Of a DNA stretch of 64,000 bases, positions 16,558 to 18,555 are shown in pieces; positions within the stretch are counted from its first letter, which is position 1, and each line of letters starts with the position of its first letter. A program made the translations under genes and the position numbers. Source of the stretch: Nitrososphaerota archaeon (lineage in GTDB: Archaea > Thermoproteota > Nitrososphaeria_A > Caldarchaeales > Calditenuaceae); the NCBI GenBank assembly GCA_041641295.1, contig JBEPYO010000001.1, positions 352,001 to 416,000 of the forward strand, in the 5' to 3' direction. The notes below the pieces were generated by a model. That model made no database searches, was not told the origin of the DNA, and saw only the letters and a program-made list of their open reading frames with translations.

Positions 16558-17520
16558 TCAGCCTTGGGGTGTGAGAGCCCCCAGAATGACGTATTGTAGG
16601 ACGATTGACAGGTATATTAGAGAGAGGCAAATGAGTGCTGCGATATGCCATCTTAAACTTCTGAGGTGTGAGAGGGAGCTTGTTAAAAGTAAGAAGCTGA
16701 TGAACTGTGAGGACACGAGAGCGACATTGGCTGCAAGCGAGGTGGGGACTATGCTGCTTGGTGAGTGGAACCACGCCCACCCCACAACCTTCGCTATGAA
16801 GAGCAGGAACGGATATAACGACATGGGCAGGATGCCTATAGATACTGCCGCCAGCCCCTTCAGAGCCGACCTGTTAAATGTTACAACGCTCAATATGAAA
16901 TCCCTAACACGTTTTAGTGTATTGTCTTCCTGCTTTCCCAGTATCCTTCTTTTTCTTAACTCGTCGTAGAGAGCTGTAAGGGCTGACAGGTAGATGTAGA
17001 TGAAGGCGATCGTCCCAAGCATGGTTAGTATGGAGCCCATCAAGTCAAAGTTACGCCAGTGATAGACGTGGAGCCCAATTAGGGATATCTTCCCGTTGAG
17101 GTATAGGGCCATGTTCAAAAGGGCGCTTAGAGATCCTAGAATGACGGCGATTACGGTCCTGTCTAGCGCGGGTCCTAGTATCCAGCTTGGATGGATAACA
17201 GTGGTGAACAGGCGGTCAAGAAAGCTTTGCGGGTTCTTAACATTCTCGAGAAGGAGTGGGTCGCCTGCTTTCAGCATCTTGTAAACTTCCAGCCCTTTCT
17301 CTGTGAGATAGTAGTTGCGTTTACTATCTTGAGCCACGAATGGTTCAAGCTGTTTAAGATTATAGTATAGGCTCCCAGTGCTTATCTGTAGGCTCGCCCT
17401 GAGAGCAGATGCACTGACCCTTCCTGCGTCGCCGATAGCCAGTATAATTCGGCGCCTAGTCCTGTGGTTGAGAAGCCAGACTGGGTTATCTTCAGAAGTG
17501 TCATTGACAGACGCTGCCAA
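16558..17520 (-). CDS. ArsR-like wHTH domain fused to a multi-pass membrane domain
   Basis: LNHRTRRRII..ISTGSLYYNLKQL..YYLTEKG followed by about 5 hydrophobic helices. Confidence 0.75.
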   Translation of the reverse strand: MAASVNDTSEDNPVWLLNHRTRRRIILAIGDAGRVSASALRASLQISTGSLYYNLKQLEPFVAQDSKRNYYLTEKGLEVYKMLKAGDPLLLENVKNPQSFLDRLFTTVIHPSWILGPALDRTVIAVILGSLSALLNMALYLNGKISLIGLHVYHWRNFDLMGSILTMLGTIAFIYIYLSALTALYDELRKRRILGKQEDNTLKRVRDFILSVVTFNRSALKGLAAVSIGILPMSLYPFLLFIAKVVGWAWFHSPSSIVPTSLAANVALVSSQFISFLLLTSSLSHLRSLRWHIAALICLSLIYLSIVLQYVILGALTPQG

Positions 17521-17565
17521 GGCTGACCTTACTTAAATGATTTCATGCATTTAAACATTGCAGGG

Positions 17566-17630
17566 GGCGGCTCAGATAAATGCCTTGAATACATCAAGAT
17601 TCCTCGTAACTCTGAGTCTTCATCGCCGCC
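17566..17630 (-). ncRNA. Box C/D guide sRNA, predicted to target 23S rRNA H69/H71
   Basis: Minus strand: GGCGGC-G-ATGAAGA(C)-CTCAGAGTTACG-AGGA(D')-ATCT-TGATGTA(C')-TTCAAGGCATTTAT-CTGA(D)-GCCGCC; 6-bp terminal stem; TATA-like CTTATATG about 25 bp upstream; guides complementary to conserved archaeal 23S GUAACUCUGA and AAAUGCCUUG. Confidence 0.85.
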
Positions 17631-17724
17631 TAATCATTGTTGTAGGGCATCTGCATATAAGGCTTGCAGCCGCCTACACCTAGTAAGTTTTAAAGTGGGG
17701 GGGAGTAATTATCATCCTCAGCGC

Positions 17725-18555
17725 ATGTCAGAGTCTTCTGAGTCGCGAATCAAACACGGCGACAGGGTCTTGATAGTTACTGAGACGGGGCATAGATATT
17801 TCCTGACCCTGAGGAAGGGTCAGCTCTTCCACACGGCTGACGGCTATTTCGAGACGGACAAGATAACATCTCTGTCCGAGGGTGGTGAAGTTCGGAGCAA
17901 CATAGGGAGACGAGGAGTTGTATTCAGGCCGCTACTACTAGAACACTTATTATCTCTCCCGAGGAGGACACAGATCATCTACCCCAAGGATTTTGGATTC
18001 ATTCTAGTTGTCTCAGGCGTTAGACCGGGCTCTCGGGTGGTTGAAGGCGGGACTGGAAGCGGTGTACTGGCACTCCTACTCGCAGCCTACGTAGCCCCGA
18101 ACGGCAAGATATACAGCTACGACATCGATGGAGAGAACTTCCCCACAATTATGAAGATGGCTGAAAGGCTAGGTCTCTCGGACGTACTAGAGTTGAAGAA
18201 GGGAGATATTTACAGTGGTGTGGAGGAGGTGGACGTTGACGCCTTCATCGCCGACGTTCCCCAGCCTTGGGATGCCGTAGACCAGGCTAAGAAGGCCCTC
18301 AGGGGTGGAGGAATGTTCGTCTCGATAGTGCCAACAGTGGAGCAGTTGGTTAAGACGAGTGAGAAGCTTAGGGAGCGGGGATTCCTAGAGTACTTCAGTG
18401 GAGAGTTAATGATAAGGCCTTGGAGGGTTAGGCAGGGGATGACCCGTCCACACCACATATCGAGGGCACACACCGTTTTCATAGTTGTGGCGAGAAAAAC
18501 CGAGTGTGAGAACCTCTCCGACTGGACTCTTAAACTACCCGACGGCCTCAGGTGA
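17725..18555 (+). CDS. trmI: tRNA (adenine-N1)-methyltransferase TrmI
   Basis: RRTQIIYPKD, VVEGGTGSG, DVPQPW; ATG at 17725 preferred over the ORF-track start. Confidence 0.92.
   Translation: MSESSESRIKHGDRVLIVTETGHRYFLTLRKGQLFHTADGYFETDKITSLSEGGEVRSNIGRRGVVFRPLLLEHLLSLPRRTQIIYPKDFGFILVVSGVRPGSRVVEGGTGSGVLALLLAAYVAPNGKIYSYDIDGENFPTIMKMAERLGLSDVLELKKGDIYSGVEEVDVDAFIADVPQPWDAVDQAKKALRGGGMFVSIVPTVEQLVKTSEKLRERGFLEYFSGELMIRPWRVRQGMTRPHHISRAHTVFIVVARKTECENLSDWTLKLPDGLR

Follow-up and report, generated by a model that had tools for sequence, protein, structure and literature searches.

A predicted double-guide box C/D sRNA for helices 69 and 71 of 23S rRNA, conserved throughout an archaeal order

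What is encoded, in a hot-spring archaeon, by the 65 nt on the strand opposite to the beginning of a 336-aa open reading frame (ORF) that runs into trmI, the gene for a tRNA m1A58 methyltransferase? This stretch belongs to a window of 64,000 nucleotides (contig JBEPYO010000001.1 of assembly GCA_041641295.1, positions 352,001 to 416,000, the basis of all coordinates below unless a contig is named), and a preliminary description of the window had proposed that it holds a dual-guide box C/D sRNA for the H69–H71 region of 23S rRNA. Our own assessment is that the locus very probably is an independently transcribed archaeal box C/D sRNA, predicted to act as a double guide for H69 and H71. The terminal stem GGCGGC/GCCGCC and the C, D', C' and D boxes of that description are all found at 17566–17630 on the minus strand, arranged as follows.

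17566..17630, minus strand: whole box C/D sRNA, 65 nt, with its 5' end at 17630; 81.4 bits with covariance model R1
17625..17630, minus strand: 5' arm of the terminal stem, GGCGGC; all 78 cells paired
17617..17623, minus strand: C box, ATGAAGA, agreeing with RUGAUGA at 6/7 positions
17605..17616, minus strand: D' guide, CTCAGAGTTACG, 12 nt; pairs with 23S 2043–2052 in the H69 loop
17601..17604, minus strand: D' box, AGGA; terminal GA invariant in 16/16 sequences
17597..17600, minus strand: loop ATCT between the D' and C' boxes
17590..17596, minus strand: candidate C' box, TGATGTA, degenerate
17588..17594, minus strand: alternative C' reading, ATGTATT, 12 nt from the D box and without GA
17576..17589, minus strand: D guide, TTCAAGGCATTTAT, 14 nt; pairs with 23S 2069–2078 in H71
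17572..17575, minus strand: D box, CTGA
17566..17571, minus strand: 3' arm of the terminal stem, GCCGCC; pairs with the GGCGGC arm

The architecture can be followed in relatives. BLAST of 121 nt against 40 related genomes returned clear homologues in 15 and a partial match in one more, and an alignment of 16 sequences, the present copy included, was used both for stem statistics and for building model R1. A single G separates the 5' stem arm from the C box, in which position 5 is A instead of the consensus U; its T9, G10, A11 and G13 are invariant in all 16 aligned sequences. The C and D boxes show the marks of a k-turn, with GA in both boxes, U in the D box, and G6 of the C box paired with C1 of the D box, according to the description of this motif quoted from section 10 of PMC7994747. 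The terminal stem comprises six base pairs and co-varies: across the alignment, pair 3/63 is CG in six cases, UA in six and AU in one, eight cells have changed on both sides, and the changes are compensatory at two pairs, a level reached in none of 500 shuffles. The stem is also retained in the minimum-free-energy fold (−20.8 kcal/mol, z = −2.3).

The internal motif is less regular. Canonical spacing had been claimed for the whole RNA, and this holds for the 12 nt between C and D'; between C' and D, the spacer measures 14 nt if TGATGTA is taken as the C' box, and 12 nt is obtained with ATGTATT, a reading that lacks GA. Homologues in other genera carry canonical C' boxes (GTGACGA, ATGATGA) with both spacers at 12 nt, and in the compact homologues GTGACGA stands exactly 12 nt ahead of the D box. 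Genome G007 has no TGA at the C' position. The C'/D' motif of the present copy is therefore weak, so that one of the guides might methylate poorly or not at all. Because the predicted target of the D guide is counted from the D box, it is unmoved by the degeneracy of C'. The degenerate C' box, the antisense position relative to the ORF extension, and the fact that H68–H71 is an already published hotspot are additions to the preliminary description.

The genome, 1.56 Mb in five contigs, has its 23S rRNA gene at G000:C1:529899–532964. The D' guide forms 10 contiguous Watson–Crick pairs with positions 2043–2052 of this rRNA (GTAACTCTGA), and the D guide forms 10 with positions 2069–2078 (AAATGCCTTG), 26 nt beyond the D' target. 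The complementarity to the H69 loop and to H71 that had been proposed for conserved archaeal sequences is thus perfect in the cognate rRNA, at 10 of 10 pairs each. The runs compare with a floor of 9–10 nt named beforehand for the guides, and with the 9-bp complementarity criterion used in PMC4644070.

The partners of the fifth guide position (N+5) are A2046 for the D' guide and A2071 for the D guide, 25 nt apart. By alignment to an Escherichia coli 23S sequence (NZ_CP028742.1, which lacks 2 nt relative to the reference ahead of H69), A2046 corresponds to E. coli A1913 in the H69 loop and A2071 to A1938 at the start of H71. Both equivalents are those foretold by the D+5 rule in the preliminary description, an agreement that depends on this alignment and on the offset to E. 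coli numbering, which was set by landmarks that we take to be the H69 loop U1911–A1919, m5U1939 and the sarcin–ricin loop.

When the guides were shuffled, a run of at least 10 pairs covering N+5 arose in 853 of 200,000 trials for the D' guide and in 512 of 200,000 for the D guide, and both matched together in only 6 of 200,000. Elsewhere in the genome, outside the sRNA gene, the guide 10-mers occur at six places (D') and one place (D), with one of each on contig C4; in this genome, 23S rRNA sequence alone contains both 10-mers, 26 nt apart. Contig C4, 2585 nt long, carries a second, partial 23S rRNA gene (G000:C4:923–2521) that is 88% identical over H69–H71 and contains both sRNA targets. Because its H69–H71 matches other families of the phylum and not the organism's own genus, C4 probably entered the bin from a foreign genome. 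The 16S (C1:443156–444647) and 23S genes lie approximately 85 kb apart and are unlinked.

At gathering thresholds, Rfam yielded no match in the 64-kb window. Searched in E-value mode, positions 17300–17900 gave ten weak matches, nine of which fall on the sRNA on the minus strand, eight of these being to C/D families; the best reached 21.5 bits against a gathering score of 43. The plant family snoZ266 (21.5 bits) was considered and set aside, as its guide is out of register and the match is taken to be generic. Pyrococcus sR11, sR15, sR49 and sR17 (RF01150, RF01146, RF01303 and RF01144) align weakly over the full length, at 11.9–19.2 bits and with the boxes in register; the sRNA belongs to none of the four, because these scores lie below the gathering scores (36–50 bits) and the guides differ.

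A C/D motif scan of our own over the genome returned 11 candidates when a stem was required, against 6 in a reversed-sequence control; when a 9-mer rRNA match was demanded, it returned 210 single-guide candidates against 156, and 8 double-guide candidates against 6. As these figures are similar to those of the reversed control, motifs alone would not prove an sRNA, and the scan was given no weight as evidence. Two other loci, C1:756717–756769 (plus strand) and C1:262584–262633 (minus strand), have good C and D boxes (GATGATGA ... CTGA) and two 9-mer matches each to 16S rRNA; they look like candidate C/D sRNAs and are offered as leads only, the scan being no better than its control.

Model R1 found the sRNA in 74 of the 76 genomes of the order, which we take to be Caldarchaeales (Aigarchaeota), nearly always in a single copy, and the two genomes without a match are assemblies that are 84% and 74% complete. 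The class is represented by the same 76 genomes. In an even sample of the phylum, R1 matched 89 of 151 genomes; the 132 from outside the order account for 70 of these, and 47 of the 70 scored at least 42 bits. With the stricter filters of the Infernal search, R1 matches were absent in families f10 (0/13), f14 (0/13), f15 (0/5), f19 (0/5) and f21 (0/5). All 11 matches inspected outside the order retain both guide cores. Among 20 further matches there (26–56 bits, mostly weaker), the H71 guide core is present in every one, and the H69 guide is retained in 11, doubtful in 2 and replaced by a different D' guide in 7. The D guide core GGC[AG]TT occurs in all 50 aligned homologues. Moreover, R1 matched all 19 genomes of family f5, and each of the five tested in that family was AmoA-positive; the sRNA family therefore extends to ammonia-oxidising archaea.

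These counts bear on the suspicion that the locus is a functionless constellation of short motifs thrown up by chance, as the similar candidate numbers in reversed sequence and the recurrence of guide 10-mers elsewhere in the genome might suggest. Chance would not account for an sRNA carried by 74 of 76 genomes, for compensatory changes in the stem and between guide and target, or for the rarity with which two shuffled guides match together. Given the conservation data in particular, this explanation is effectively refuted, and we accord it almost no credence.

Two variants of the D' guide were seen along the way. Seven loci of families f7, f16 and f20 (L129, L130, L132, L133, L140, L145 and L147) keep the H71 guide and have a different D' guide, with the core TACTCCCG in five of the seven; its best 23S match is a 9-mer approximately 1.46 kb upstream of H71 (in two genomes), and an 8-mer match lies in H69. 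Judging from the sequences, one guide seems to have been exchanged for another within a single sRNA family. In AmoA-positive members of f5 (L105–L108 and L111–L114), the D' spacer is 1 nt longer, and N+5 would consequently fall on the equivalent of A1912, the first A of the H69 loop, instead of A1913.

Guide and target can be compared directly in the 28 genomes of the order for which both the sRNA and a 23S sequence were available. In all 28, both guides lie in the same register and place a Watson–Crick A–U pair at N+5 for both sites. The H71 target is invariant in the 30 23S loci of the order. Genus g2 differs in its H69 target, the sequence being GTAATCCTGA in G008, G011, G013 and G018. In G008 and G018, the D' guide, TCAGGATTAC, fully compensates for this change; in G011 and G013, the D' guide, TCAGGGTTAC, pairs with the changed H69 through one G–U. 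In three genomes of other families (G089, G108 and G136), G has become A in the D' guide at a position where H69 has stayed the same, leaving one A–C mismatch, and some guide changes are therefore not compensatory. The G-to-A change in the D' guide of families f17 and f22 had been a candidate for a compensatory change and was ruled out on this ground, H69 being unchanged and the resulting pair an A–C mismatch.

Constant register also bears on whether the RNA directs two methylations at all. It might serve as a folding chaperone only, or one guide alone might be catalytic, if degeneracy of the C'/D' motif keeps fibrillarin from being placed properly. PMC4644070 and PMC7994747 propose that double guides can act as chaperones, and the C' box is indeed degenerate in this sub-clade, where the choice lies between ATGTATT at 12 nt and TGATGTA at 14 nt and where G007 lacks the TGA. 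Published guides that do not methylate are, however, marked by a mismatch at N+5 (PMC4644070, PMC6009581), whereas here the N+5 pair is Watson–Crick A–U at both sites in 28 of 28 genomes. The GA of the D' box is likewise invariant in all 16 aligned sequences, and in more distant homologues the C' box is canonical and the spacers measure 12 nt. We consider a chaperone-only or one-guide function distinctly unlikely and favour a guide active at both sites.

Three neighbouring features are relevant to whether the sRNA is a gene of its own.

17655..17660, minus strand: TATA-like element TTATAT, at −30 to −25 from the stem
17725..18555, plus strand: trmI (tRNA m1A58 methyltransferase), the divergent neighbour, with its real start at ATG 17725
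16558..17520, minus strand: gene for an HTH-plus-membrane protein, the downstream neighbour, 320 aa, with a TTG start

The sRNA had been credited with a TATA-like element of its own. TTATAT is present at 17660–17655, and across 50 homologues the A+T fraction rises to 0.74–0.94 at −29 to −24, compared with 0.32–0.36 at −19/−18. To judge from base composition, this peak fits an archaeal TATA box that would set the transcription start at or just before the stem. On the opposite side, a TTTTAAAG element at approximately 17688–17695 would serve as the trmI promoter, divergent from that of the sRNA.

It could be argued that no separate RNA gene exists here, and that the region is the N-terminal coding part of TrmI or else a 5' leader or k-turn regulatory element of the HTH–membrane gene. 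An ATG at 17545 (plus strand) does open a 336-aa frame through the sRNA region, the sRNA ends 45 nt upstream of the TTG start of the HTH–membrane gene, and in 9 of 36 loci the HTH gene comes after the sRNA, an adjacency conserved in genera g1 and g3 only. Yet the Pfam domain TrmI-like_N begins at residue 70 of the 336-aa ORF, and the frame upstream of ATG 17725 is closed by stops within 1–25 codons in five of the seven genomes of the genus; the 60-codon extension of TrmI (17545–17724) is therefore spurious, as had been surmised. Moreover, the conserved letters are those of the boxes, the guides and the co-varying stem, not of codons, and a second TATA-like element, TTTAAAT, stands between the sRNA and the HTH–membrane gene. 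The neighbours themselves vary. Divergent trmI lies within 1.5 kb of the sRNA in 18 of 36 loci (genera g1, g3, g7, g11 and g15) and is missing within that distance in the other 18, which include g6, locus L071 of g14 and each of the 10 loci from outside the order; in 27 of the 36 loci the HTH gene does not come after the sRNA. The sRNA is thus tied to no single neighbour, and a coding or leader origin for the region is very improbable. The product of the downstream gene has a weak winged-helix match at its N-terminus; it scores below the cut-off with HTH_20 (22.9 bits, cut-off 27) and with DUF7347 (21.1 bits, also below cut-off) ahead of hydrophobic segments, a composition from which it may be a membrane-anchored transcription regulator.

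As regards the double-guide reading, the proteins that such an RNA would need are encoded in the same genome: fibrillarin (302 bits) and Nop5 (226 bits) by adjacent genes, and L7Ae (109 bits). The genes for the three proteins lie at C1:73310–73576 and C1:1409395–1410827. Among the 21 sequencing runs listed for this DNA, none carries an RNA label. We infer that the sRNA is transcribed and would assemble with L7Ae, Nop5 and fibrillarin, and that its two antisense elements would pair simultaneously with domain IV of nascent 23S rRNA, one with the H69 loop and the other with the 5' strand of H71. Fibrillarin would then 2'-O-methylate A2046 and A2071, which pair with the fifth guide nucleotide ahead of the D' box and of the D box, respectively. 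The double interaction probably also aids local folding of the subunit-interface region.

An RNA of this design has close counterparts in other archaea. Double guides whose two sites are separated by less than 100 nt have been described (Dennis et al., 2015, PMC4644070), and the same paper names H68, H69 and H71 as hotspots of 2'-O-methylation in archaea, with predicted sites crowding around E. coli A1912. The H68–H71 double guides catalogued in PMC4644070 and PMC6009581 (Lui et al., 2018) share with the present sRNA the architecture, the L7Ae/Nop5/fibrillarin machinery and the rRNA region. The catalogues cover Sulfolobus, Pyrobaculum, Ignicoccus, Methanopyrus, Nanoarchaeum and others, and not the Caldarchaeales lineage; an sRNA with the same guide pair may already be catalogued for another archaeon. 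A literature search on C/D sRNAs in Aigarchaeota or Thaumarchaeota brought up reviews and nothing else. Exact methylation sites in archaea are generally not conserved between groups, and no position is common to all seven species studied, according to PMC6009581 and PMC7994747 (Breuer et al., 2021). Because both of its sites are kept over the whole class, the present family is an exception to this rarity.

A further likeness is to eukaryotes. As the preliminary description had stated, yeast 25S rRNA is methylated at Am2256 and Am2281; the former is guided by snR63 and Am2280/Am2281 by snR13 (PMC5199042), and the two lie 25 nt apart, like both sites here. In Table 2 of PMC11542601, the corresponding rows list human Am3760/Am3785 and Arabidopsis Am2257/Am2282, and no equivalent of Pyrococcus abyssi appears on these rows of that table. 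The 25-nt spacing is common to yeast, human, Arabidopsis and the targets of the present sRNA. Human SNORD15A has a D guide predicted for LSU-3764, and G3771 lies at the base of H71 (PMC5027482). This G stands seven nt past A3764, just as a G stands seven nt past A2071 in the 23S rRNA of this organism. The Rfam SNORD15 model gives a weak match to the D-guide part of the sRNA (12.8 bits). We take E. coli 1913 and 1938 to be equivalent to yeast 2256 and 2281 and to the human sites, an equation made from position numbers and equal spacing and not by alignment. On these terms, both sites are predicted to be the same as those methylated in yeast, plants and humans. The organisation differs, as eukaryotes employ separate, longer snoRNAs for each site, and one 65-nt RNA would serve both predicted sites here.

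The rRNA between the two targets has a feature of its own. In 16 of the 30 23S loci of the order, H69–H71 is interrupted exactly between both sRNA target sites. Twelve of the inserts are 755–1137 nt long and follow directly after ...CCCTC (for example, L037:1584–2415 in G003 and L047:1584–2716 in G024). We refer to them as LAGLIDADG-type introns; both insert ORFs that were tested contain LAGLIDADG (43.9 and 71.1 bits). The other four are mini-inserts of 59–563 nt positioned 3 nt past the site of the long ones. Thirteen of the 30 loci, that of the present genome included, have no insert, and for the last one a contig end prevents a decision. In G108, of another family, the 23S rRNA is split at the same place. 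A literature search for 23S introns of Caldiarchaeum brought up only a paper on 16S introns. We regard the placement of introns between the target sites as coincidental, since guide targets and introns alike favour highly conserved rRNA.

A more ambitious interpretation would join the eukaryotic likeness to the introns: the sRNA would be an ancient double guide that shares its descent with the eukaryotic guides of the snR63/SNORD46 and snR13/SNORD15 types, and would hold exons together at the introns. The eukaryotic guides could go back to a common ancestor with the sRNA and have separated later, and in the intron-bearing relatives the two arms of the sRNA could hold both exons together during or after splicing. 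Taken jointly, we regard these two proposals as unlikely, and we retain the simpler account of a double guide for two sites.

On that account, the sRNA is an unannotated, clean but ordinary member of a well-known class of RNA, aimed at a known hotspot. It rises slightly above the routine through the unusually deep conservation of both guides and the coincidence of its sites with conserved eukaryotic ones, and through the introns that lie between both target sites in 16 of 30 relatives. For annotation, this means that an RNA gene has been overlooked here and that the TrmI start was set 60 codons too early, across that gene; at least 74 genomes of the order need the same correction, and model R1 is suited to annotating the family. 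Both sites are kept across the class, and the D guide is found in much of the phylum sample. The predicted sites coincide with Am sites that are conserved universally among eukaryotes, one at intersubunit bridge B2a (H69), the other at H71, and the sRNA family lends itself to the question of why these two riboses are important.
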